A stretch of 63,166 nt of DNA from Thermoproteota archaeon (GCA_013154235.1 JAADCV010000100.1:1-63166), one strand, 5' to 3'; positions 3,390 through 57,446 are shown, counted from the first letter of the stretch. Translations and numbers: made by a program. Notes: a model not told the origin generated them from the letters alone.

Positions 3390-3440
3390 TCAGTGGGTAA
3401 CCGCTTCATCACAAGCTCAAGTCCCCGAAAAACTCATCAT
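3390..3440 (-). ncRNA. C/D box sRNA candidate 1
   Basis: Minus strand 5'->3': C AUGAUGA (3440-3434), 13-nt guide, D' UUGA (3420-3417), 4-nt spacer, C' GUGAUGA (3412-3406), 12-nt guide, D CUGA (3393-3390). Box C contains the UGA stop of the DtxR-like gene. Confidence 0.65.
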
Positions 3441-4096
3441 CGCCTACAGCACCTAATGATCCTCGCGAGCTCGTAATCTACACACGCCTTTTCACCGCTT
3501 GAAGCGATCTCTACCTCTATGCACTCCTCGTTCTTACCTACAACCAGCAGCTCGGACCCTACACCTATGCCTAACCTCTTCGCACGCTCGATAAGTCTCT
3601 CGCTAACAAAGCATAGCACCCTACTCACTATACAGTGCTCCCCTACCCTCATGCACGATAGAGGATCATCATTGATCGTCTCGATGTTACTCGAATCAGG
3701 ACTAGGAATAGGGTTCCCGTGCGGACACCTCTCGGGCCTTCCAAGATAGTTGTAGAGCCTGTAGAAGAACTCGTCAGGCATGTGCTCCAGCATATGAGCT
3801 AGCTTGTGGCACTGCACCTCATCGAATCCAAGCACTTTGTGTAGGAACACCTCGGCTACCCTATGCCTCCATATCACCTTCCTAGCTATGTTCAAGCCCT
3901 TAGGCGCTAGTCTAAAGCCTCTGTAGGGCTCCCAAACAAGGTAACCCTCTCTAGCTAGCCTCTGCAGAACCTTTGTCACGGTAGCTGGGGTGACCCCAAG
4001 TATCTTAGCAATGCTGCTTGTTCTAGCTACCCCATACAGCTCCTCTAGCCTAAGTACCGCAACCAGGTAGTCCTCGAGTACGCTACCTCCTTTCAT
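3437..4096 (-). CDS. DtxR/MntR-family metal-dependent repressor with C-terminal FeoA/SH3-like domain
   Basis: N-terminal wHTH (EDYLVAVLRLEE..ARTSSIAKILGVTPATVTKVLQRLAREGYL), metal-site region (HMLEHMP..CPHGNPI), FeoA-like tail. ATG 4096 chosen; divergent from feoB. Confidence 0.85.
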   Translation of the reverse strand: MKGGSVLEDYLVAVLRLEELYGVARTSSIAKILGVTPATVTKVLQRLAREGYLVWEPYRGFRLAPKGLNIARKVIWRHRVAEVFLHKVLGFDEVQCHKLAHMLEHMPDEFFYRLYNYLGRPERCPHGNPIPSPDSSNIETINDDPLSCMRVGEHCIVSRVLCFVSERLIERAKRLGIGVGSELLVVGKNEECIEVEIASSGEKACVDYELARIIRCCRR

Positions 4097-4102
4097 ATCA
4101 AT

Positions 4103-4124
4103 AAGTTTAGACGCACCTAACCTT
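4103..4124. promoter_or_regulatory. Candidate DtxR-type operator (imperfect inverted repeat AAGTTTAG-N6-CTAACCTT)
   Basis: Arms match in 7 of 8 positions. Lies in the 68-nt divergent spacer and overlaps the feoB TATA-like TTATATAC (4123-4130) by 2 nt. Confidence 0.5.
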
Positions 4125-4164
4125 ATATACTTTGCCACGCACCAGACCACGGGCCGCCAGAGCT

Positions 4165-6276
4165 ATGCTAGAGCTCAGCAACTCCTGGGAAAAGCTAAGG
4201 AAGTGCAAGCGCATCGCAGCATTAGCTGGCCAGCCCAACGTCGGCAAATCAACGCTCTTCACGAGGATAACGGGAGAGATAGCCCACGTGGGAAACTTCC
4301 CCGGAACAACCGTCGAGATAAGCGTGGGGATCGCGCATGTAGATGGAGACGAAATCTGCGTAATCGATCTCCCTGGAACCTACGGTCTATCAGCCTCGAC
4401 TGAAGAGGAGCGTGTCGCTAAGAGAATCCTTCTTAGCGGTCTCCCTCAGGTGACTATAGTGGTGGTCGACGGTATCAGCATCGAGAGAACGCTCTATCTA
4501 GCTATCCAGATTCTGGAAATGTTCCCACGTGTAGTCGTAGCGCTCAACAAGTGGGATGTGCTTCACAAGAAGGGGGTTCATATCAATATCGAGAAGCTCG
4601 CTAGGTACCTAGGGTCCCCGGTTATACCTGTATCCGCCATAACTGGCGAAGGGGTTAGGGCTCTCCTCTTAGAAGCTCTAAAGGAGATGAATAGGGTTCC
4701 CCGGAAGCCTCTTGAGGTAGATTATGGTCCTCTAGAGAGGTTCGTCAGGGAGCTCGAGGACGTTGTTAGCAAGCTAAATCTCTACCCTTCTGCGAGCCCT
4801 AGATGGATTGCTATAGCGATACTGGAGGGAGACGAGGATGTTGCTAACGATTTGCGTAGAGCTAGCGAGAATCTGTATAGAGAGGTTATTGCAATTGTTG
4901 AGAGAGCTAGAAAGGAACTTGGCGCGAACCTACCCGAGGTCATCGCTAGACAGCGCTACGCATTGGCGGAGAGAATCGTTAGGGATTGCGTTGTTAGAGT
5001 CGAGGTTAAGGAGAGCGCGTTTCCAGCTATAGACAGAGCTTTTCTCAACCCTGTTATAGGTCCGATCCTATCGGTTGCGCTTCTAGCTACAGTATTCTTC
5101 GCGGTGTTCTCAATAAACACAGGCTACCCCCTAGTGTTGATACTTAGACACGTTGGTGCATCGAGTGCAGCTGAAGCTCTGGAGAGCTATAGCTTATCTG
5201 GACTCGTAGGAGAGGCGTTCCGCATCCTAAGCGCGTACACAGCTAGCTCGCTGAAACACGTATGCGGCTCAGCGTGCTCAAACCTGATAGCGTACGGTGT
5301 CGTAGGCGGTGTAGGGGTAGTAGTTAGCTTTCTACCTCTAGTCTTCACAATAATGGTCGTGCTAGCTGCCCTCGAGGACTCTGGCCTAGGCCCTAGAATG
5401 GCTTCATCGCTACACAGCCTCTTCAGCGCCTTCGGGTTATCGGGACGCGCTGTCTACCCTATGCTAACAGCGTTTGGATGCAATGTTCCTGCCGTGCTAG
5501 CGTCTAGGGCTGCCATAGATCCCGTGGAGAGAGTTGAGATAGCCATGAGCATAGCGTTCATTCCATGCCAAGCAAGGCTCGTTGTTCTGGCTGCGTTCGT
5601 AACGTTCATATTCTCTTCGTCACCATCGCTCCAGGCAGTAGCAATGGTATCTGTCCTCCTGGGAGGCGTCTTGCTGTACCTTGCGACAGCTAAGCTCGTA
5701 AGAGTGCTGCATCGCGCATCGCCATCTCCAGAGCTCCTCCTAGAGATACCACCGATACACAGACCCTCGTTGAGGGTGATATGGTGGAACTCGTGGGAGC
5801 AAACAAAGCACTTCCTAAAGAAAGCAGGTGTTCTAATATTTGCGCTAAGCGTGGTCTCGTGGATACTCCTCCACTTCGGCTCTATGGGATACGTCGGCGA
5901 TTTGATAGAGAGGAGCTTCGCTGCGAATCTAGGGAAATTCCTAGCGCCACTCTTTGCCACGATATACGGGTTACCCCCATCTTCAGCGTGGAAAATGGGG
6001 TTCGCCACGATCGTAGGCTTCTTCGCTAAGGAGGGTATCCTCGCAGTCTTCGCGCAGCTAGGGAAGGGAAGCATAGCTGCAGCCATAGGAATGAACTCAA
6101 GGCAAGCGTTTGCAGCTCTACTCTTCTTTATGTATTACCTACCATGTCTAGCTACAGCGGTAGTGATGCACCAAGAGCTTGGGAGCATTAAAAAGACTGT
6201 TGCAGCTGTAGCCTACATGATTGGGATTGCTCTAGCTATCTCAGCTGCAGCCTACGCAGTACTTAGGTTTCTATAG
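4165..6276 (+). CDS. feoB: Ferrous iron transporter FeoB
   Basis: G-domain motifs GQPNVGKSTLF, DLPGTY, NKWD followed by a polytopic membrane domain. ATG 4165 is about 35 nt downstream of the TATA-like box. Confidence 0.9.
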   Translation: MLELSNSWEKLRKCKRIAALAGQPNVGKSTLFTRITGEIAHVGNFPGTTVEISVGIAHVDGDEICVIDLPGTYGLSASTEEERVAKRILLSGLPQVTIVVVDGISIERTLYLAIQILEMFPRVVVALNKWDVLHKKGVHINIEKLARYLGSPVIPVSAITGEGVRALLLEALKEMNRVPRKPLEVDYGPLERFVRELEDVVSKLNLYPSASPRWIAIAILEGDEDVANDLRRASENLYREVIAIVERARKELGANLPEVIARQRYALAERIVRDCVVRVEVKESAFPAIDRAFLNPVIGPILSVALLATVFFAVFSINTGYPLVLILRHVGASSAAEALESYSLSGLVGEAFRILSAYTASSLKHVCGSACSNLIAYGVVGGVGVVVSFLPLVFTIMVVLAALEDSGLGPRMASSLHSLFSAFGLSGRAVYPMLTAFGCNVPAVLASRAAIDPVERVEIAMSIAFIPCQARLVVLAAFVTFIFSSSPSLQAVAMVSVLLGGVLLYLATAKLVRVLHRASPSPELLLEIPPIHRPSLRVIWWNSWEQTKHFLKKAGVLIFALSVVSWILLHFGSMGYVGDLIERSFAANLGKFLAPLFATIYGLPPSSAWKMGFATIVGFFAKEGILAVFAQLGKGSIAAAIGMNSRQAFAALLFFMYYLPCLATAVVMHQELGSIKKTVAAVAYMIGIALAISAAAYAVLRFL

Positions 6277-6639
6277 AGATGACTTTCTCTTCAACATCTC
6301 CTCTAGCTCCTTTATCCTCTCCTCCACGCTTCTAAGCTCCTCTTGAAGCTCCTTCAGATCCTCTTCTAGAGCCTTCTTGTACTCCTTCAGCATCTCTAGC
6401 TCCTCCTCTGGAGTTGGGGGCGGAGGAGGCGGTCCGTAGTACATTGGCGGAGGGTAGTACGCAGGATACGGGTAGTAGGGTTGCTGAGGCGCTTGGTACT
6501 GCTGCGGCTGCGACTGCTGTGAGGGTTGCTGTGGATACTGCTGCGGATACTGCGGAGGGTACTGGGGGTAAGGTGGTGGGGGAGGTGGCGGAGGAGGCAT
6601 CCAGTACCTAAACCTTCTCCACCATCCAAACCATGCCAC
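6271..6639 (-). CDS. Low-complexity protein: Trp/Arg N-terminus, Pro9 plus P/Q/Y tract, C-terminal coiled coil (DUF5320-like)
   Basis: GTG start preceded by GGTGA-N6. MAWFGWWRRFRYWMPPPPPPPPPYPQYPPQY... then EEELEMLKEYKKALEEDLKELQEELRSVEERIKELEEML. Confidence 0.6.
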   Translation of the reverse strand: MAWFGWWRRFRYWMPPPPPPPPPYPQYPPQYPQQYPQQPSQQSQPQQYQAPQQPYYPYPAYYPPPMYYGPPPPPPTPEEELEMLKEYKKALEEDLKELQEELRSVEERIKELEEMLKRKSSL

Positions 6640-6650
6640 GCTCCATCACC

Positions 6651-6887
6651 TCACTTAGGTACTTCTACTCTAGCACTCTCTAGAGTCTTTAGGGCTGTCT
6701 CAAAGGCTCTCCTCCATGTTTCTATCACAGCTCTATAGAGCTCTATCGTCACCGCGTAGTAGTATGGCACTAGCATCCACTGCATCGCCACGTACATCAT
6801 TGCCATTGGATCGTAAGGCGGCGGCGCTAGATATGGGTAGTAGGGGTATGGGTATGGCGGGTAGGGCGCGTAGTATGGGTAGCTCAC
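6651..6887 (-). CDS. Low-complexity protein: Tyr/Pro-rich N-terminus plus aromatic helical C-terminal half
   Basis: GTG start 4 nt after the upstream stop, GGTGG 7 nt upstream. MSYPYYAPYPPYPYPYYPYLAPPPYDP... Confidence 0.5.
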   Translation of the reverse strand: MSYPYYAPYPPYPYPYYPYLAPPPYDPMAMMYVAMQWMLVPYYYAVTIELYRAVIETWRRAFETALKTLESARVEVPK

Positions 6888-6891
6888 GGTC

Positions 6892-7164
6892 TTACCACCA
6901 TGGGTACGGGTAGTAGGGATACGGTGGATAGTACGGTGCTCTTAGCGGAGGTAGCCAGGGATAGGGGTAGTAGCTCCATCTAGCTACCCATCCTGGGGCC
7001 CCGAATAGCCACCAGCACGCTCCCCTACCGTAGAGCCATCCCGGCCTCATCCACGGTGGTAGGTGGCTCCAGGGACCTCTTCCTGGCCATGGTCCACTCC
7101 ATCCCCATCTGTATCCTCTTCCCCATCCTCCTCTCCAGCCCCATCCGAAGGGTATCCACGCCAT
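6892..7164 (-). CDS. Low-complexity protein: Trp/Gly/Arg-rich N-terminus, Tyr/Pro-rich C-terminus (DUF5320-like N-terminus)
   Basis: ATG 7164 preceded by GGTGA-N5. MAWIPFGWGWRGGWGRGYRWGW...YYPPYPYYPYPWW. The ORF-track start at 7275 would overlap the DUF134 gene and is rejected. Confidence 0.55.
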   Translation of the reverse strand: MAWIPFGWGWRGGWGRGYRWGWSGPWPGRGPWSHLPPWMRPGWLYGRGACWWLFGAPGWVARWSYYPYPWLPPLRAPYYPPYPYYPYPWW

Positions 7165-7197
7165 TTCTCTCACCGTTTCTGTGCTACTGCTCAGAAA

Positions 7198-7205
7198 CTT
7201 ATATG
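7198..7205 (-). promoter_or_regulatory. TATA-like box (CATATAAG on minus strand) upstream of the low-complexity ORFs
   Basis: AAAAACATATAAGTT in the 76-nt spacer, about 34 nt upstream of ATG 7164. Confidence 0.35.
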
Positions 7206-7240
7206 TTTTTCTGTCATGAATCCTAAGCAGTTTCACAGAA

Positions 7241-7591
7241 TCATTTCTCGCGAGACTGAATCGAGGGAATGACAATGGGCCTCATCTCTACAAGAGCTTG
7301 CACAAGCTTCTTGCGGGCGCTATCAAGCATTCTCCAAAGCGTTCCTCTAGAAACGTTCATTCTTCTCGCTGCCTCCTCCTGAGTCAATCCCTCTAGATAC
7401 ACGAGCCTAAGGGCTTCAAGTTCATCGGGCATTATGTACACAGGCTCCTTTTGAATTGGTTTTCCACTACTGTCTATCGGTATGAAAGTGGCGCCACCGA
7501 TCTCGAACCATATGAACCTAGGCTTAGGTCTTCTGCCTGGTCCTTGCCTCCCCCAGCACCACCTCCATGGTGGCCCCCTGGCCTCTCCCAA
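7241..7591 (-). CDS. DUF134-family putative DNA-binding protein (sigma-70 region-4-like HTH)
   Basis: GRRPKPRFIWFE..F.P.. then DELEALRLVYLEGLTQEEAARRMNVSRGTLWRMLDSARKK. TTG start; W/R/G-rich N-terminal extension. Confidence 0.75.
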   Translation of the reverse strand: MGEARGPPWRWCWGRQGPGRRPKPRFIWFEIGGATFIPIDSSGKPIQKEPVYIMPDELEALRLVYLEGLTQEEAARRMNVSRGTLWRMLDSARKKLVQALVEMRPIVIPSIQSREK

Positions 7592-7608
7592 GGCTCTCGA
7601 TCCTAGTC

Positions 7609-8490
7609 CTAGGTCTGCTGACGCGCTCTTATGTACTCCCTACCCCTATACTTAACTATGGTTAGGGACCCCCTCTCTAAGTACCTTCGCAGAACCTCCA
7701 TAGCCTTATCCCCATGTTCGCGCTTGAGAAGCGATAGTGCTAGGTCTAGGGGTACTGGGTGCAGCTTCGCTATCTCTAAGAGGCTTTCTATAGTGCTAGC
7801 TCTAGCGAGAACCTCGTCTATCTCCGCCAGAGGTAGCAAGATAACTCGGTGCTTCCCGAGGTACATCGATAGCCTCTCCGCGAAGATCCTCAGTCTATCG
7901 ACTCTAGGCACCCTAACCCACTTCTCGGCTGGAGGCCTAATCGGGGCGTTGATGTACACTACGTATGGCTCCACCTTTCTGAGGGCCTCAGCTAGAAGAT
8001 CAGCATGCCAAGAACCATCGTTTACACCATCGACTAGCACCGTCTCTATAGATAGGATGCCGCTAATCTCCTTGGATAGCTCTTCGAGGCCGCTGATAAT
8101 GGCGCTGATCCTTATAGCGTTATCAGGTCTGTTGACTCTGCGAAAGACGCTTGGCGTAGCAGCGTCGAGCTTCATGGAAACGAAGTCGAATACCGTAGAG
8201 TCCTCCCTAACATCGCGTCTCCACACCAGCGAGGCATTGGATATTAGCGCTACCCGATACCCAAACTCTCTCGAGACTAGAGTAGCCGCCTTACCTAGAA
8301 GGCTGTAGAGGGTGGGCTCACCGTCACCTACAAACGTTAGGTAGTCTACCCTATCAACATTCTCTAGAGCCCGCTCAACAACTCTAGCAACTTCCTCTGG
8401 CTCGCAGTACCTACGCCTAAGTATGCTAGTCCTAATGGTTCTACCTAGCTGACAGTATATGCACGAGTAGCTGCAGGTCTTCATAGGCAC
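7609..8490 (-). CDS. Radical SAM protein (COG0731-like); true N-terminus probably lies upstream of the called start
   Basis: CSYSCIYC (CxxxCxxC) at residues 6-13 of the called ORF. The conserved YGPVLSRRLGFSLGI segment is encoded in frame upstream (to 8562) without a canonical start. Confidence 0.8.
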   Translation of the reverse strand: MPMKTCSYSCIYCQLGRTIRTSILRRRYCEPEEVARVVERALENVDRVDYLTFVGDGEPTLYSLLGKAATLVSREFGYRVALISNASLVWRRDVREDSTVFDFVSMKLDAATPSVFRRVNRPDNAIRISAIISGLEELSKEISGILSIETVLVDGVNDGSWHADLLAEALRKVEPYVVYINAPIRPPAEKWVRVPRVDRLRIFAERLSMYLGKHRVILLPLAEIDEVLARASTIESLLEIAKLHPVPLDLALSLLKREHGDKAMEVLRRYLERGSLTIVKYRGREYIRARQQT

Positions 8491-8816
8491 AACGCTTATA
8501 CCGAGAGAGAAGCCTAGGCGCCTTGATAAAACGGGTCCGTAAGCCCTAGGTATATGTGCCGTGGTTTCACCTTGCGCTAGAGAGCTAGGGATGCAGAAAA
8601 AGGTTTAGCGCTTGACATCTACTAGACACCGTTGAGCGCGGGAATCATGCCTCATCACGCACCAGATAGTTCGCTCTCACAAAGTATCGAGGGGAACTCA
8701 GCGGATCCCCGCACCATCTCAATGCTTGCTGCTACGAGCAGCAGTGCCTTACTATGTAGAACAAGGTGCTGGTCGCATATACCCAAGCGGTTCCTCGAGA
8801 CCGCGGGCTACAGCTT

Positions 8817-9152
8817 CTAGCTCTTGATCCCTATCAGCATCCTGATACTCTTAGCGTCGCCGCGCTTCACGAGCTCAAGTAGTTCGTACTCGAGCCCTGG
8901 CCTACCTAGCTTTATGGCTATCGGCTTCAGAATTAGTGAGACTAGGGCGAAGTCTGCAGACGCCTCGTCTCCCCCATACCTCTGCTTTATGAACTCGTAC
9001 GCCTCCTTGGGGTTCTCTATTAGTAGCTCCACGAATTTCTTGCCGTACTTAGCCATACACACGTTGTCGAGCATACGGAGGAAGCCTGGTATCCTGCTCT
9101 CAGCCCACTGCCTTACGTACCTTACAAGCTCCTCGATCATGGTTATAGCCAC
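8817..9152 (-). CDS. Hypothetical protein, 111 aa
   Basis: ATG-initiated ORF with coding-like composition; no recognisable motif. Confidence 0.5.
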   Translation of the reverse strand: MAITMIEELVRYVRQWAESRIPGFLRMLDNVCMAKYGKKFVELLIENPKEAYEFIKQRYGGDEASADFALVSLILKPIAIKLGRPGLEYELLELVKRGDAKSIRMLIGIKS

Positions 9153-9407
9153 TCGTGTACACTATTCCTCTATGTCTCCATAGATACTTAAACGACATGA
9201 GTACAATAAATAAAGTTTGTTCTCACTGCATGACGTCCACGATGTGAACCAGTACAGGTATAGATGGTACTACTCGCATTCAACGTGCGATACGTTTACT
9301 ATAAGCTACGTGCCTACTGGAACACTAGCTTCATCGATACTGAGTCAAGTACCTTAATTATCTGTGAAAGCTGCCTGACAGATGAGCGCATCCAGAGGTG
9401 AGCATCT

Positions 9408-10112
9408 GTGTACATGCTGAAGATGATACACGAGTTCGAGAAGGTCGAGAGGAGGAAGCCTATAGACGGCACATACATAGTGCTCGTAGGTCTCTTCGTT
9501 GGCTGTCTAGTAAGCGCGAACTTCATAGCGATAAAGCTATGTAATATATTCGGCCTAGTAGTTCCAGCTGGAGTAATAGCGTACTCAATAACGTTCACGG
9601 TAACCGACATCATAAGCGACGTCTACGGCAGGAAAGCCGCTAGCTACGCCGTGTGGGCTGGATTCGCTGCAAACATAGTTATGGTGGCTATGGTGTTTGG
9701 AGGCTGGCTTCTACCACCTCTATCACCAGCCTTCCAGAGCAAGTACCAGGTGCTACTATCGACCCCTAGGATAGTAGCTGCTAGCATGGTCGCATACCTC
9801 CTAAGCCAGAATCACGACGTTCTAGCATTCCACTTCTGGAAGGCCCTCACAAAGGGTAGGCACCTATGGCTTAGAAACAACGCCTCTACAGCTGTTAGCC
9901 AGCTCATAGATACGTGCACCTTCATAACGCTAGCGTTCTACGGAGTCGTGCCGAACTCAGTGCTGCTAAACATGATCCTCGGCCAGTACCTCATTAAGCT
10001 GCTGATAGCGATCTGCGATACTCCATTCGTGTACCTAGGAGTGAAGCTGATAAGCGGGAGGAACGTCTCGTTTAAGGAGATTGCTCTTCGGAGCCCCTCC
10101 GTAACCTCCTAA
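9408..10112 (+). CDS. Queuosine/preQ0 precursor transporter (YhhQ/DUF165 family)
   Basis: VPAGVIAYSITFTVTDIISDVYGRK..A...VWAGF plus 6 TM segments. Start could be GTG 9408 or ATG 9414/9423. Confidence 0.75.
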   Translation: MYMLKMIHEFEKVERRKPIDGTYIVLVGLFVGCLVSANFIAIKLCNIFGLVVPAGVIAYSITFTVTDIISDVYGRKAASYAVWAGFAANIVMVAMVFGGWLLPPLSPAFQSKYQVLLSTPRIVAASMVAYLLSQNHDVLAFHFWKALTKGRHLWLRNNASTAVSQLIDTCTFITLAFYGVVPNSVLLNMILGQYLIKLLIAICDTPFVYLGVKLISGRNVSFKEIALRSPSVTS

Positions 10113-11445
10113 CGATTAGTGTAAAGCCCTTTCTACCTATGACCTCTACTTCCTCTCCAGGCTCTATGGTCTCGTCGCTTATCGCTGTCCAGTACTCGCC
10201 CTCAACCATAACGGTGCCTGGCTTACCTGGCTCAATCCTATCTACCGCTTTGCCGACCGCTCTCTCTGGACTATACCTAATTCTCGGCTTGCTCCTTATA
10301 GCACGAGCAGCCTTGTACATTATGAAGGTGAAGAATGCTGCTAACCCCCCTCCCACAACACCCACGATAGCCCTCACCTCATTTATTGAGGCTGCGAACA
10401 CGCTTCGGCCCGGCATTGCCGGAAGGAGTAGTAGACCGAATATTATAGCGGCAATCCCGCTAGCGCCCAGTATTCCGAAGCCGGGCGTTACGAAGAGCTC
10501 TATCGCTAGCATAACGCTTCCAAAGACTATCAGCGCTATCGCTATGTAGTTAACCTGCATGCCTCCAGCACCAACGATGGCTAGAAGCAGCATAACTAGG
10601 GTGAGTGGCAGAACTTCGTACCTACCGCTTAGCAGCGCTGCAAACGTTCCGAATACGCCTATGAACCAGAGTATGGATTGCACTACAGCGTTTCGAAGCA
10701 CGGCAAAGAACACTATGTTTATTGCTGGAGACACGTAGGTGTAGCCACTTATGTTTATTGTTACTGTTTTGATCACAACCCCATTCACCGTTATGTTGAC
10801 CTTCATTCCATTAACCTTCTTTATAAGGTCGCTTAGTGAGTATGCGACAAAGTTGGCTATCCCAACCTTAACAGCCTGCTTTCCGGTGAACACGTAGTTG
10901 TGGAGCACGAAGCCCTCGGCTGCAGTCACGTTTCTATGTCTAGTCTCCGCCCATAGTCGTATCTTAGCGAGGATGGGGTTTATGATCTTGCTCTCATTAA
11001 TGAACTTGACCTGCCCAGTAGCTGGATTATATAGGATTGGCTGCGCAGCACCTATGGTTGCCGTGGGACCAACAGCTATTATATGCATCGGTATGAGTAT
11101 TATGCATGCAGCGCTAAACGCCTTGTTAGGCACGTACCCTATTACGGGCACTCTAGCATTGAAGAACGCCTCGCCGAACTTGAACATCGTTGCTAGGTAC
11201 CCTCCATAGCTATCAACCTCAACGATTAGCGGAACCCCTTCGCTCTCCGCTAGCTTAAGCCCTTGATTAACAACGTAGTCGTATGCGGGCTCGTCTATCT
11301 CGCTCACGATACCCGATATCTTAACTAGGATCGCGTTTCGGTACCCACCTTTCTGAGCTGTAAGCACCACTGATGTAGCTACTGATGCAGCTATGAATGC
11401 TAGCATCATCAGCGTAAATACGTAAAAAGCTCTTTGCACCCCCAT
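10072..11445 (-). CDS. NfeD-type membrane-bound ClpP-class serine protease (long form, C-terminal OB domain)
   Basis: N-terminal ClpP-like domain, central TM bundle, C-terminal GTVMVEGEYWTAISDE..IEPGEEVEVIG NfeD OB-fold. Directly upstream of the stomatin gene. Confidence 0.8.
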   Translation of the reverse strand: MGVQRAFYVFTLMMLAFIAASVATSVVLTAQKGGYRNAILVKISGIVSEIDEPAYDYVVNQGLKLAESEGVPLIVEVDSYGGYLATMFKFGEAFFNARVPVIGYVPNKAFSAACIILIPMHIIAVGPTATIGAAQPILYNPATGQVKFINESKIINPILAKIRLWAETRHRNVTAAEGFVLHNYVFTGKQAVKVGIANFVAYSLSDLIKKVNGMKVNITVNGVVIKTVTINISGYTYVSPAINIVFFAVLRNAVVQSILWFIGVFGTFAALLSGRYEVLPLTLVMLLLAIVGAGGMQVNYIAIALIVFGSVMLAIELFVTPGFGILGASGIAAIIFGLLLLPAMPGRSVFAASINEVRAIVGVVGGGLAAFFTFIMYKAARAIRSKPRIRYSPERAVGKAVDRIEPGKPGTVMVEGEYWTAISDETIEPGEEVEVIGRKGFTLIVRRLRRGSEEQSP

Positions 11446-34006: not shown

Positions 34007-35071
34007 GTGTTGTCTAGGATTGCAGAAACGCGCAAGGTACAGCGCTTCGGCAGATCGACACTAATGGTTTCACTACCATCGGAGTGGGTCAAGAGCGTTG
34101 GGCTGAAGCCTGGAGACCTAGTTAGGATAGAGGTTAGGGACGACGGAACGCTGATGATAGTACCCGAAGCGCTTATAGAGAAGAGAATGAAGGGGAAGGA
34201 GGTGACCATAGTTGTCGATCATACAACCCCGGAGGAGGTTCTCGTCAGAAGCATCTACGCAATGTACATAGCGGGATACGATAGAATAAACGTGGAGTGC
34301 GACGAGCCTTACATACTGAGCCAGCAACTGCACGCGATACGAAACATTGTCAGGATGCTGATTGGAGCTGAGATAGTTGAGCAGACAGCCAACAAGGTAT
34401 CCATACAAGTGTTCATAGATGTTGAAAAGTATGGGCTCGAGAACCTTGTGCTTAGAATGATTAACGCATTAAAGAGCATGCTCGACTTCCTAATGCTCTC
34501 CATAAAGAGCGGAAAGCGCGAGCATCTACGCGAGCTCATGGAGCTAGAGTACGAGCTCGATAGGGTGCACGCGTTGGCTGTTAGATACACCTACGTTCTC
34601 AGCATGATGGGCGGAACCCCCTTCCTTACTGAATACAGGGCTCTCATAAAGGACTTTGAGGATATAGGCGACTCGCTAACTTGCGCTGCACAAGCCTTCG
34701 AAGATCAGCCCGAGATACTGAGCAAGATAGGGACCTCACTGTCTTACCAGCTCGATGAGCTAAAGGAGCTGCTATTCTATGCGTTCGATGTTATATACGA
34801 TGCGCTGACGAAGGAGGATGTTTATATAGCTACGAAGGCTGTCGACATAGCTATAGAGGTATCGAAGTTTGTATCTAAGCTAGAGAGCGAGATACTGCCG
34901 AAGTTCAACACCGCCGAGGAGTACTCGAGGATAAAGACATTCTTCGACAAGATGCAGCTTGTATGCAACCATCTTCAGGGAGCCGCGGAGCTATCCTTTG
35001 ATATTGTGTTGGGTAAGAGAAAGGAGCGAATAGACTTGCGTAGGAAGCCTAAGCTCACTCACTCCCGCTAG
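34007..35071 (+). CDS. AbrB/SpoVT-domain plus PhoU-domain regulator (archaeal PhoU-like)
   Basis: N-terminal KVQRFGRSTLMVSLPSEWVKSVGLKPGDLV swapped-hairpin domain, then two PhoU-like helical repeats. Confidence 0.75.
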   Translation: MLSRIAETRKVQRFGRSTLMVSLPSEWVKSVGLKPGDLVRIEVRDDGTLMIVPEALIEKRMKGKEVTIVVDHTTPEEVLVRSIYAMYIAGYDRINVECDEPYILSQQLHAIRNIVRMLIGAEIVEQTANKVSIQVFIDVEKYGLENLVLRMINALKSMLDFLMLSIKSGKREHLRELMELEYELDRVHALAVRYTYVLSMMGGTPFLTEYRALIKDFEDIGDSLTCAAQAFEDQPEILSKIGTSLSYQLDELKELLFYAFDVIYDALTKEDVYIATKAVDIAIEVSKFVSKLESEILPKFNTAEEYSRIKTFFDKMQLVCNHLQGAAELSFDIVLGKRKERIDLRRKPKLTHSR

Positions 35072-35729
35072 ATCTCTCCAGCACATCCCTTAGGTACGGT
35101 GATAGCGAAGCTACTTTCTCTAGTTTATCCCTATCAACCTTCAGGATCCCCTTCTCGATCAGCCTCTTTAAGCATCTTCGTAAAACCTTTCTTATTAGCC
35201 ATCTCTTGCTGAGGGTTCCGAACAGCTTTATAGATGCCTCTCTAATGCTTCTATACCTCATTACAGCATCCAGAATCCTAAGGTCTTCTTTCGACAGCTC
35301 GTTTCTTAGATATCTATAGGCTATGCGTGCAACATCAATAGGACTGAGACCTAGGTATACATCCTCGGGGTTAAGGTCCGTAAACGTTTTCTCCACTTCG
35401 AACTCTATGATCGTGACCGTATCGTCCGGAGATATCTTCCTTCCATAGACTCTCTCCAGATCCTTCAAGAGCTCGTCTAGAGACTCATATCCATCCTTTC
35501 GAGCATCTTCCTCAGTAAGCTCCCTAACCTTCTTATGCACGACCCTAACTATACGAGCTTTAGCTATAGGCCTTCCACCGCCGTGAATTATAACCTCGCT
35601 GTACCTAGGAATGACCTTTCCTAGCCTTATGGTGCTCCTCTTCCTCCCACTTAATATGAGATCCACGAACCTCCCTTTGACCATTATGTGCCTTCGCAAG
35701 AAAACCTTCTCGTCGCCCACGCCCTTCAC
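35055..35729 (-). CDS. ASCH-domain protein with C-terminal helical extension
   Basis: RFVDLILSGRKRSTIRLG....YSEVIIHGGGRPIAKARIVRV....ELTEEDARKDGYESLDELL. Confidence 0.6.
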   Translation of the reverse strand: MKGVGDEKVFLRRHIMVKGRFVDLILSGRKRSTIRLGKVIPRYSEVIIHGGGRPIAKARIVRVVHKKVRELTEEDARKDGYESLDELLKDLERVYGRKISPDDTVTIIEFEVEKTFTDLNPEDVYLGLSPIDVARIAYRYLRNELSKEDLRILDAVMRYRSIREASIKLFGTLSKRWLIRKVLRRCLKRLIEKGILKVDRDKLEKVASLSPYLRDVLERSSGSE

Positions 35730-56156: not shown

Positions 56157-57446
56157 TTAAATCTGCTTCTGGACGTATACAACGTCTAGCTCGAGACACA
56201 CCGCCTTAGTATTTAGAACCTCGCTGAAGCTAGGAGTTGTCCTACCATCGTCACCGGAGATGAGCTCCTTTATGTATAGCCCTCCCTCAGCCTTTATCAG
56301 CGCCTCAAAGAGATTGCTATCCAACCTCATAGCTCTAACAGATATCACTTTCCTCCTTCTTAGAGCCTCTCTCTTCCTACGGAGAACTCTCTTAGGTGTC
56401 CACTGCTCAACAACTCTCCCCCGGAAGAAGCTCTCTAGCATAGATAGATCCTCTTCACTAACGCTTCTCTCTGTAAGGACGAGCGCTCGATATATCTTAT
56501 AGCCCCTACTACCCTTGACGTTCGCCACGACCTCTCGTCTAACGCTCATCTCGAGCTCGAAGCCTAGCCAGGGGCTGAAGCTGTTTATCTTTTCCTCTAC
56601 GATCCTCAGGTCAACGCTATGATCCAGCGCTCTGTGGATCTCTAGAACAAACGGTCTGCCGCTGCCAAGCATCCTAACATCGACATCCTCTCTGCCACCA
56701 CCGTGAAACACAGCTTTATCGCCTCTCGCTACCTCTGCTGCTGCTTGAAGAGCATCCTCTATAGCGAGAGGATATCTTCGCGATCCATCTTTTTCGATCC
56801 ACGGTACCTGAGATATTCTTCTACCAAGTTTCCAGTACGTTCCTAGAATGAGTAGGGAGGGCACCTCTACACGAACGCTCATAGTGTTCATGTCTAGGAT
56901 TATTGTTACGCAGGGGTTCTCAAAGTCTGGTTTAAAGCCATACCTATCACGCACAGCCTTACCTATAACTCTCTTTAGCTCGCTTCTCACGCTCTCCCAC
57001 GTTGTTAATCCAGTAGCTCTAGCAACCTCCTTCTCCTTCTCAACGATATCAGATGGTGGAACAACTCCAACAAGAAACCTATCTACACCTAGCTCGCACA
57101 GCTTCTCCTTAACTGCCTCCACGCCCCATTCTATCAAGTGCTCCAACCTGTTTCCGCATATGTAGCAATTCCCCGCGCCCGCCTCCGCAGAGATCCCTAG
57201 AGTCTCGAGAACCCTCCTAACCTCATCGCAACTCTTAGCCACGTCCTTTACATCATCAACGCTTACAGTACCGGCGGACAAAGCTTGATGAATCTCCATA
57301 GCTAGGCACGTCTTTATCGCTCTGCCGCGCTCTGCGTTATCAAATCCCTTGCCTAGCTGTGCAAACAGTCTCCCTAAGCATCTATCGCATAGAGGGTAGC
57401 GCCTAAGCACCTCCAGAGCCTTGCCAAGTACCCAGCAGAGCTCCAT
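56157..57446 (-). CDS. pus10: tRNA pseudouridine synthase Pus10
   Basis: N-terminal Zn module (CDRCLGRLF..CYICGN), THUMP-like middle, C-terminal synthase core (..GGREDVDVRMLG.GRPFVLE..). Confidence 0.85.
   Translation of the reverse strand: MELCWVLGKALEVLRRYPLCDRCLGRLFAQLGKGFDNAERGRAIKTCLAMEIHQALSAGTVSVDDVKDVAKSCDEVRRVLETLGISAEAGAGNCYICGNRLEHLIEWGVEAVKEKLCELGVDRFLVGVVPPSDIVEKEKEVARATGLTTWESVRSELKRVIGKAVRDRYGFKPDFENPCVTIILDMNTMSVRVEVPSLLILGTYWKLGRRISQVPWIEKDGSRRYPLAIEDALQAAAEVARGDKAVFHGGGREDVDVRMLGSGRPFVLEIHRALDHSVDLRIVEEKINSFSPWLGFELEMSVRREVVANVKGSRGYKIYRALVLTERSVSEEDLSMLESFFRGRVVEQWTPKRVLRRKREALRRRKVISVRAMRLDSNLFEALIKAEGGLYIKELISGDDGRTTPSFSEVLNTKAVCLELDVVYVQKQI

Follow-up and report, generated by a model that had tools for sequence, protein, structure and literature searches.

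A conserved archaeal operon encoding three tryptophan-, tyrosine- and proline-rich proteins, two of them related to the DUF5320 family

Three consecutive genes on the minus strand of a 63,166-nucleotide stretch of DNA from a Thermoproteota archaeon (GCA_013154235.1, JAADCV010000100.1:1-63166; hereafter the window) encode small proteins of extreme amino-acid composition, which we call ORF-A, ORF-B and ORF-C (open reading frames A, B and C). They are real genes under purifying selection, translationally coupled and arranged in a conserved archaeal operon, and A and C are related to DUF5320 (Pfam PF17253, gathering cutoff 27 bits), a family whose two halves are carried here by separate genes. The nearest named relatives are uncultured Desulfurococcaceae and Hyperthermus butylicus. 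In the interpretation that we favour, with a probability of about 45%, the trio would act as non-enzymatic, mostly disordered partner subunits that link the product of the neighbouring DUF134 gene to iron-sulphur (Fe-S)/metallocluster carriers, in an operon under feedback control at a palindrome that precedes ORF-A.

Composition, translation and conservation of the three genes

The three tandem ORFs had been placed by an initial annotation made from the sequence, and both a six-frame ORF list and the reverse-strand sequence agree with its coordinates and translations:

7164-6892, minus strand: ORF-A, ATG start, 90 amino acids (aa); from the six-frame ORF list and translation
6887-6651, minus strand: ORF-B, GTG start, 78 aa; from the six-frame ORF list and translation
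6639-6271, minus strand: ORF-C, GTG start, 122 aa; from the six-frame ORF list and translation

For ORF-A, the ATG at 7164 is favoured over a TTG at 7275 because ortholog N-termini begin MAW. The composition is indeed as extreme as had been claimed: ORF-A holds 18.9% W, 20% P, 16.7% G and 12.2% Y, ORF-B 19% Y and 17% P, and ORF-C 25% P, 12% Q and 11.5% Y, against averages of 1.0% W, 3.3% Y and 4.4% P for the long ORFs of the window. In W+Y+P content, no other window ORF of 60 aa or more matches A, B and C, which take ranks 1-3. The 11-mer GGGTAGTAGGG, reported to be common to the three, stands exactly where it had been placed (6470, 6835 and 6908; 0.03 expected by chance). A fourth copy is found at 56504-56514 on the minus strand, outside the three ORFs.

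Each ORF is preceded by its own Shine-Dalgarno-like motif, again as proposed: GGTGA at 7174-7170 for A, GGTGGT for B and GAGGTGAT for C. The motif of B is built from the last two Trp codons of A; at 6892-6900 of the window, the terminal Trp-Trp codons and the stop (TGGTGGTAA/TGA/TAG) double as the Shine-Dalgarno of the following gene. The gap between A and B is at most 19 nucleotides (nt) in 33 of 33 pairs. Where it is short, A ends Trp-Trp-stop and TGGTGGT(A/G)(A/G) is itself the Shine-Dalgarno for B; in orthologs of A with YY, PY or YW at the end, the spacer is longer and contains a distinct GGAGGTGA-type motif.

When one genome per species was scanned, 310 loci proved to encode a relative of A, and 80 of them were fetched; the neighbourhood and operator counts given below cover 81-83 loci (numbered with the prefix L), mostly from metagenome-assembled genomes (MAGs). 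The closest relative, an uncultured Desulfurococcaceae genome (L003), served as the reference for the ratio of non-synonymous to synonymous substitution rates (dN/dS), which is 0.13 for A, 0.21 for B and 0.05 for C, beside 0.04 for the neighbouring DUF134 gene. The low-complexity parts alone give values below 0.15 (residues 1-70 of C, dN 0.165 and dS 1.84; tail of A, dN 0.21 and dS 1.62). A second genome (L083; GCA_054002435.1, JBPLWE010000009.1), 99.7% identical to window 4241-10591, differs across the three genes by one substitution, a conservative R to K in C.

The minus-strand order of a radical SAM gene, the DUF134 gene, A, B and C, taken from the six-frame ORF list and Pfam, is identical in L003, where it reads R-D-A-B-C-FeoB-DtxR. 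Dozens of archaeal genomes, from Desulfurococcales, Thermofilales, Methanomethylicota and other lineages, keep arrays of the form A-B-C or C-A-B; Hyperthermus butylicus is among them, with an A-like ORF of 81 aa, a B-like gene and a C-like gene in a row. The triplet, with tracts of a length that the initial annotation had not seen described in a thermophilic archaeon, is therefore no one-off. The comparison with relatives that the initial annotation had called for came out in its favour, with frames, starts and order conserved and a substitution pattern that is non-neutral. Purifying selection, same-order orthologs in many genomes, and translation signals that co-vary with the coding sequence thus establish A, B and C as genes.

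The opposite view, that these are chance open frames in low-complexity DNA, could appeal to the way in which gene callers mishandle the region. In L083, B is called correctly, but an out-of-frame 39-aa ORF stands in the place of A, and a 40-aa C-terminal fragment and an antisense 55-aa ORF in that of C. The A homolog of Hyperthermus butylicus CP000493 (L001, 5752-5997) is uncalled among the recorded genes, the exact ORF-C product matches no entry on record in the protein collection searched, and a database search with ORF-C gave no match with bias correction on. However, dN/dS far below 1, together with frames, starts, Shine-Dalgarno motifs and order conserved in dozens of genomes and with 203 homologs of A, rules out low-complexity noise and makes this view hardly credible.

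Relationship to DUF5320

ORF-A consists of a W/G/R-rich N-terminus, an invariant core at about residues 24-53 (nt 7006-7095, including Cys50) and a W/Y/P tail that ends in WW. Many of its 203 database homologs bear a precomputed PF17253 tag. In a 119-sequence alignment the columns P27, G28, G30, L35, P36, P37, W38, R40, P41, G42, W43, G46, G48 and C50 are invariant, 90% or more of the aligned sequences (118 homologs) retain R47, and the core reads PWPGRGP(F/W)SxLPPWxRPGWxxGRGxC. After this core the family takes two forms, one with a coiled coil that Pfam recognises and one with the W/Y/P tail seen in ORF-A. Among 58 orthologs the tails are about 40 residues long, average 21% W, 22% Y and 18% P, and often terminate in WW. 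The AlphaFold2 (AF2) model of A has a mean predicted local distance difference test score (pLDDT) of 51.7, with no confident monomer fold despite the 119-sequence alignment, and a PDB sequence search with the A profile returned nothing meaningful.

In ORF-C, a W/R-rich N-terminus (MAWFGWWRRFRYW) is followed by nine prolines, a Q/P/Y-rich tract, six further prolines and a heptad coiled coil (residues ~77-118, nt 6286-6411). In this coiled-coil segment, which had been noticed initially, the heptads are canonical, with L/I/V/M at 10 of 13 a/d positions; ORF-A lacks this feature of DUF5320, a C-terminal coil of some 35-40 residues. Against the Pfam model, ORF-C scores 22.7 bits (E=2.3e-4), which is below the cutoff, over residues 69-104 and profile positions 63-98, and its ortholog in L024 passes with 31.0 bits. 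Orthologs of C were recovered by synteny and by phmmer/jackhmmer with the --nobias option on the fetched loci; since this option can pick up unrelated coiled coils, they were accepted on position and on the conserved motif [ST]PEEEL..LE.YK..LEE. About 40 orthologs share one architecture (W/Y/R-rich N-terminus, poly-Pro, Gln-rich tract, Tyr/Pro tract, poly-Pro and coil), with the coil consensus (T/S)PEEEL.MLE.YK..LEE.L..LQEELKSVEERIKEL and with spacers that average 29% P, 13% Q and 13% Y. C-like ORFs adjoin A in about 46 of the 80 fetched loci.

ORF-B combines a disordered Y/P-rich arm (residues 1-26) with one long helix (residues 27-74, nt 6666-6809), which AF2 models at a pLDDT of 85-97. The helix motif PYYY..T.E.YR..I..WRK..E, the Y/P-rich arm and a DP motif are common to 35 of 35 locus copies, and the arms are 62% Y+P+W across orthologs. 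In the 80 fetched loci, the B orthologs (~34-35) all lie directly downstream of A-type genes, and among 1.84 billion proteins B matches 22 representative clusters. Pfam, NCBIfam, PADLOC and PHROGs returned no match for A or B, and from the defence and viral families of PADLOC and PHROG ORF-C drew weak coiled-coil matches only. ORF-B is best described as a separate small family that has no Pfam model and is not DUF5320.

The initial annotation had likened the three proteins to DUF5320, and part of this stands. The relationship is genuine; however, the N-terminal Gly/Arg/Pro motif with GRGxC is present in A and absent from C, C matches through its coil, and B lies outside the family. The profile search that it had proposed gave a similarly divided answer, with DUF134 recognised clearly, A and B without a match, and C below the DUF5320 cutoff, though the L024 ortholog exceeds it. 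ORF-A escapes the Pfam model because it lacks the coiled coil, which that model mainly scores.

How the parts are distributed among loci is informative. Among 19 loci with a fused A+coil protein, 18 are without a separate C and none has B, whereas a separate C is present in 46 of the 62 A-only (coil-less) loci and B in 34 of the 62; among the other A-only loci, several are on truncated contigs. In single-chain intermediates (P0004, P0016 and P0024) an A core and a Y/P tail are followed by a C-type coil, and the fused A+coil protein in L021 passes the DUF5320 cutoff with 30.9 bits. That fused loci do without separate B and C genes, and that most A-only loci have them, argues that the trio is a fissioned DUF5320, in which A has kept the core and C the coil, with B added in the split form only. 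Like PF17253 proteins, the trio displays the archaeal G/R/W core with GRGxC (in A), the C-terminal coil scored by Pfam (in C) and an adjoining DUF134 gene. It differs in that each half has its own gene and B stands between the two, in that the coil of A is replaced by a tail of ~60-70% W/Y/P, and in that the core of C is replaced by a W/R motif and a Pro/Gln/Tyr spacer. Formally, A and C fall outside Pfam DUF5320, yet by alignment and synteny they are its two halves.

A third small type of DUF5320 paralog, with the N-terminal motif CRWFPWLPRRWWTG(I/M)YGP and a coiled coil, was also observed among the loci; its copy in L033 passes the Pfam cutoff with 37.2 bits:

L017, 5700-5951: third DUF5320 paralog type
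L033, 5792-6064: third DUF5320 paralog type
L044, 5739-5984: third DUF5320 paralog type
L047, 4111-4374: third DUF5320 paralog type
L052, 5780-6073: third DUF5320 paralog type

The candidate operator and the iron/Fe-S neighbourhood

The spacer 5' of A is strikingly conserved among the window, L003, L005 and even Hyperthermus butylicus. Between a TATA-like box and the Shine-Dalgarno of A it holds a 20-base-pair palindrome with the consensus TTxTGTGC-N4-GCACAxAA. The elements of this spacer and the genes around the trio are as follows:

7177-7196, minus strand: candidate palindromic operator, TTCTGAGCAGTAGCACAGAA; 21.7 bits with a position weight matrix (PWM)
7221-7240, minus strand: degenerate second operator copy, TTCTGTGAAACTGCTTAGGA, with 4 mismatches, directly 3' of the DUF134 stop codon
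7198-7205, minus strand: TATA-like box, CATATAAG, preceded by an A-rich tract resembling a B recognition element (BRE); read from the sequence
7591-7241, minus strand: DUF134 (UPF0251) gene; Pfam PF02001, E=2.6e-18, 66.8 bits
8490-7609, minus strand: radical SAM protein, 293 aa; Pfam PF04055, E=4e-13; 17 nt upstream of DUF134
4132-6276, plus strand: FeoB ferrous-iron transporter; Pfam FeoB_N, E=2.3e-51, plus Gate, FeoB_Cyto and FeoB_C
3437-4150, minus strand: DtxR-family iron-dependent repressor with a C-terminal FeoA domain; Fe_dep_repr_C 2.7e-24, Fe_dep_repress 1.4e-16, FeoA 8e-4

A scan with the PWM (consensus AATTTTGTGCAATTGCACAAAATT) returned 106 sites, spread over 72 of 83 loci, where shuffled loci gave none. 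Most of these (93 of 106) lie upstream of A-type genes and the rest mostly upstream of C, DUF134 or NifX-like genes, and the site at 7177-7196 is the sole strong one in the 63-kb window. A weak operator-like site at 35682-35705 (13.4 bits, CATTATGTGCCTTCGCAAGAAAAC), in the 5' part of an unrelated 224-aa ORF (35055-35729, minus strand), is probably a chance match. Other searches agree with the scan: a seeded palindrome search gave 92 matches within 320 nt of A starts versus 29 in the remaining ~656 kb, and an unbiased 6-mer test found GCACAA/TTGTGC in 54 of 76 upstream regions versus 6.7% of background chunks (p ~1e-45), with TATA-like 6-mers likewise enriched upstream of A-type genes. The palindrome ranges over Thermoproteota, Bathyarchaeia, Nitrososphaeria, Hadarchaeota, Methanomethylicota and Asgard lineages. 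Some relatives carry two copies, as in Hyperthermus butylicus (L001, 5686 and 5719) and in Bathyarchaeia, where the copies are 24 nt apart; it is missing from two Methanocellales loci with a canonical MVRPRKCRR-type DUF134.

An RNA hairpin was considered as an explanation of the palindrome and rejected, as its half-sites vary independently: the symmetric variable positions show no covariation, with observed/expected pairings of 46/44.3, 69/66.9 and 36/37.7. The binding site of a dimeric protein is thereby favoured. A search of the whole window against Rfam gave no RNA family. The TATA-like box, conserved in L003 and L005, forms with the BRE-like tract a putative promoter for A-B-C, and the location of the palindrome, between TATA box and start codon, would suit repression. 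Position and co-occurrence indicate that the adjacent DUF134 protein most probably binds the candidate operator; the literature searched describes no operator for DUF134.

That a DUF134 gene adjoins the trio, as had been noted, is confirmed. With 66.8 bits against a cutoff of 27 and with Sigma70_r4 and Sigma70_r4_2 matches at 1e-8, its product is a clear member of PF02001; it has a sigma-70-region-4-like helix-turn-helix and a W/R-rich N-terminal arm (GPPWRWCWGRQGPGRRPKPR). The gene lies 76 nt upstream of A in the window, and a DUF134 gene is found within 1.5 kb of an A-type gene in 50 of 81 loci, which makes the family a recurrent neighbour of DUF5320-type genes. DUF134 proteins beside A-type genes share the W/R arm PPWRW[CR]WG.RGRGRPPKPR instead of the canonical MxRPRKCRR start, and W/R-rich N-terminal arms are also found on A and C. 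In a Thermoplasmata MAG (L009, 4656-5258), a 200-aa ORF unites DUF134 (residues 2-94), an A core (residues 115-157) and a coiled coil, and a NifX-like gene follows. A search of solved structures with the DUF134 and radical SAM proteins gave weak generic matches only.

The arms could be taken for nucleic-acid binders. According to this explanation, the W/R/G arms, which are RGG-like, would attach to RNA, single-stranded DNA or G-quadruplexes, and the trio would be a nucleic-acid chaperone, not a metal-linked module. The N-terminus of A is RGG-like, and an RG-motif scan of Methanosarcina mazei flagged a DUF134 and a DUF5320 protein as putative G-quadruplex binders (PMC7565180). However, the motif match is purely compositional, and the Fe-S neighbourhood and the NifX-like fusions are left unexplained, so that we consider a chaperone of this kind improbable.

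Iron is a recurrent theme of these neighbourhoods. In the window, FeoB is convergent with ORF-C, their stop regions overlapping by 6 nt (6271-6276), and DtxR-FeoA is divergent from FeoB. The longest-ORF starts of DtxR-FeoA and FeoB overlap by 19 nt (4132-4150), and the true starts may differ. Across 82 loci, with Pfam applied to representatives, the recurrent neighbours of A-type genes are DUF134, NifX-like (Nitro_FeMo-Co) proteins and CbiA/NUBPL-ParA (MinD-like) ATPases with 4Fe-4S domains, together with NifU_N (IscU), EncFtn-like/rubrerythrin proteins, FeoB (~10 loci) and DtxR. In 9 loci a NifX-like domain (PF02579) is fused to a DUF5320 coil through G/R/M- or Q/P/Y-rich linkers, at either end (L030, L033, L041 at 5193-5891, L042, L044, L047, L049, L050 and L064).

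Nitrogenase cofactor maturation employs NifB, which consists of a radical SAM domain and a NifX-like domain, as well as NifU and NifH-like ATPases. Many A-type genes are surrounded by a similar set, namely NifX/NafY-like proteins, MinD/NUBPL-like P-loop ATPases with 4Fe-4S (Fer4) domains, NifU_N and radical SAM proteins, and the fusion of DUF5320 coils to NifX-like domains adds to the likeness. The differences are that no nitrogenase is present, that the radical SAM protein has no NifB model match, and that the window is without NifX-like and ATPase genes. Of the roles suggested in the initial annotation, a cofactor- or metal-related one fits the gene neighbourhood best.

The radical SAM gene itself invites another explanation, in which the adjacent enzyme modifies one or more of A, B and C, as precursors of ribosomally synthesised and post-translationally modified peptides (RiPPs) or otherwise, and introduces, for example, aromatic cross-links as in darobactin, streptide and triceptide. 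The gene lies two genes upstream of A, on the strand of the trio, and the candidate substrates have a very high content of W, Y and R. At least five distant lineages have members of the radical SAM family close to A-type genes (orthologs in L049, 2.6e-66; L052, 1.4e-52; L080, 2.3e-31; L071 and L082, ~1e-23), and in Nitrososphaeria, Brockarchaeota and Asgard loci such orthologs lie close to DUF5320/DUF134 genes. It is present, however, in only ~12-16 of 82 loci, and the window protein has a core domain only, with a single CxxxCxxC motif and no detected SPASM or RRE domain. Scans of family libraries assign it to no subfamily (the weak best matches are viperin, MoaA and NrdG-like), and identification as viperin, NifB or MoaA was rejected on scores far under the cutoffs. 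Furthermore, no protease or exporter is found among the neighbours, the core of A is invariant across phyla without a leader/core pattern, and the coiled coil and NifX-like fusions are unlike RiPP precursors. We therefore see only a slight chance that the trio is the substrate of this enzyme.

Proximity to FeoB raises the idea of a membrane interface, at which W/R N-termini and aromatic segments would anchor the proteins and aid FeoB-type iron uptake, with C as a Pro-rich stalk like TonB/TolA. The Wimley-White interfacial free energy is strongly favourable, at -31.6 kcal/mol for A overall and -6.2 for the first 19 residues of C, FeoB is convergent and adjacent here and recurs in ~10 loci, and the Pro-rich/coil region of C gives weak matches to TolA and IcmG. 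On the other hand, those matches are far under the cutoffs, most loci have cytosolic neighbours and no FeoB, and no signal peptide or transmembrane segment was found in A, B or C as judged by Kyte-Doolittle averages (maximum over 19 residues: A 0.52, B 1.06, C -0.82). The value of 1.06 likewise lends no support to the B helix as a transmembrane segment. An anchored complex is very improbable, and the envelope or fibre role once suggested for the trio loses its footing. Indolicidin and tritrpticin are Trp/Arg-rich antimicrobial peptides, and the N-termini of A and C (WGWRGGWGRGYRWGW and WFGWWRRFRYW) resemble them in composition only; unlike these peptides, the proteins described here lack an export signal, are intracellular to judge from their context, and are encoded in conserved operons together with a transcription factor.

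A possible function for the trio

The reading that we prefer, partner subunits between DUF134 and metallocluster carriers, would work as follows. ORF-C would oligomerise through its coiled coil, ORF-B would contribute a helix subunit, and assembly would also proceed via aromatic-arginine contacts of the W/R-rich and Y/P-rich arms, including the W/R arm of DUF134. The Cys-bearing GRGxC core of A, invariant across the alignment, would be the likely ligand or sensor site. As adaptors, A, B and C would connect the DUF134 regulator with NifX-like Fe-S/metallocluster carriers and thereby couple iron or Fe-S status to transcription and cofactor handling, and binding of DUF134 at the promoter-overlapping palindrome would give the operon feedback control.

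Several points weigh against this proposal. The argument for function is comparative, a case of guilt by association, and the AF2 models are of monomers only. No NifX-like or MinD-like gene lies within the 63-kb window, which means that the carrier partners are absent locally. The Hyperthermus butylicus array has no adjacent DUF134 gene, and its A homolog is without the GRGAC motif and has its Cys elsewhere in the protein. The fusion of DUF134 with DUF5320 is found in one MAG only and may be an assembly or frameshift artefact, and another transcription factor could be the operator binder. The literature searched contains no functional study of DUF5320, of DUF134/UPF0251 or of the NifX-like/MinD pairing, and offers nothing more than the RG-motif remark cited above.

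The same proteins could be seen primarily as a scaffold. In that case A, rich in Arg, Trp and Gly, and the Tyr/Pro/Gln-rich B and C would form an aromatic-arginine coacervate or gel, a membraneless compartment that concentrates NifX-like, EncFtn-like and MinD-like carriers at very high temperature, with DUF134 regulation secondary. In FUS/hnRNP-type low-complexity domains, Tyr-rich prion-like domains interact with RGG domains. The trio resembles them in joining Tyr/Gln-rich and Arg/Gly/aromatic-rich disordered segments to an oligomerisation domain, and in keeping composition more than sequence, as the tails of A, the spacers of C and the arms of B do. Disorder is predicted for A, valency is increased by the coiled coil, the net charges of A (+8) and C (-3) complement each other, and in 9 loci a NifX-like domain is joined to this type of coil and to linkers rich in G, R and M. 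Candidate archaeal prion domains have also been described (bioRxiv 10.1101/2020.07.20.212902). However, the proteins of the trio are very rich in Pro and Trp, tiny (78-122 aa) and derived from hyperthermophile relatives; the spacer of C is Q- and Y-rich but contains 25-29% Pro, which, as a matter of composition only, is unlike known prion-like domains. The residue-by-residue invariance of the A core suggests specific binding over generic stickers, and a pure scaffold needs no tight link with a transcription factor and an operator. A scaffold of this kind is accordingly unlikely, although it has some merit.

A bolder extension of the partner-subunit proposal would combine these elements. DUF134 and DUF5320 would then constitute an ancient pan-archaeal switch responsive to iron or Fe-S, present from Thermoproteota to Asgard, in which tiny, almost wholly disordered Trp/Arg- and Tyr/Pro/Gln-rich proteins build a heat-stable, coiled-coil-nucleated aromatic-arginine assembly or condensate that holds NifX-like carriers and controls binding of DUF134 to its operator. 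We regard this as unlikely and offer it as speculation. If true, the sequence itself would encode a compartment without a membrane that also serves as a sensor, at temperatures near 100 C.

Both DUF134 and DUF5320 occur widely among anaerobic archaea and bacteria, and the literature searched assigns a function to neither. Relative to that literature, the split three-gene architecture, the B family, the extreme W/Y/P tails, the fusions and the candidate DUF134 operator are new. The split form is a natural dissection of DUF5320 that assigns the Cys-bearing core, the coil and an additional helical subunit to one gene each, and the fusions to DUF134 and to NifX-like carriers name the likely partners. 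As a palindrome conserved across phyla including Asgard, the candidate operator provides a testable handle. Because A and C are miscalled, surveys of predicted proteomes under-count such proteins, which amounts to an annotation blind spot. Finally, a protein of ~19% Trp under strong purifying selection in hyperthermophile relatives offers material for the study of disorder and aromatic-arginine assembly at high temperature.

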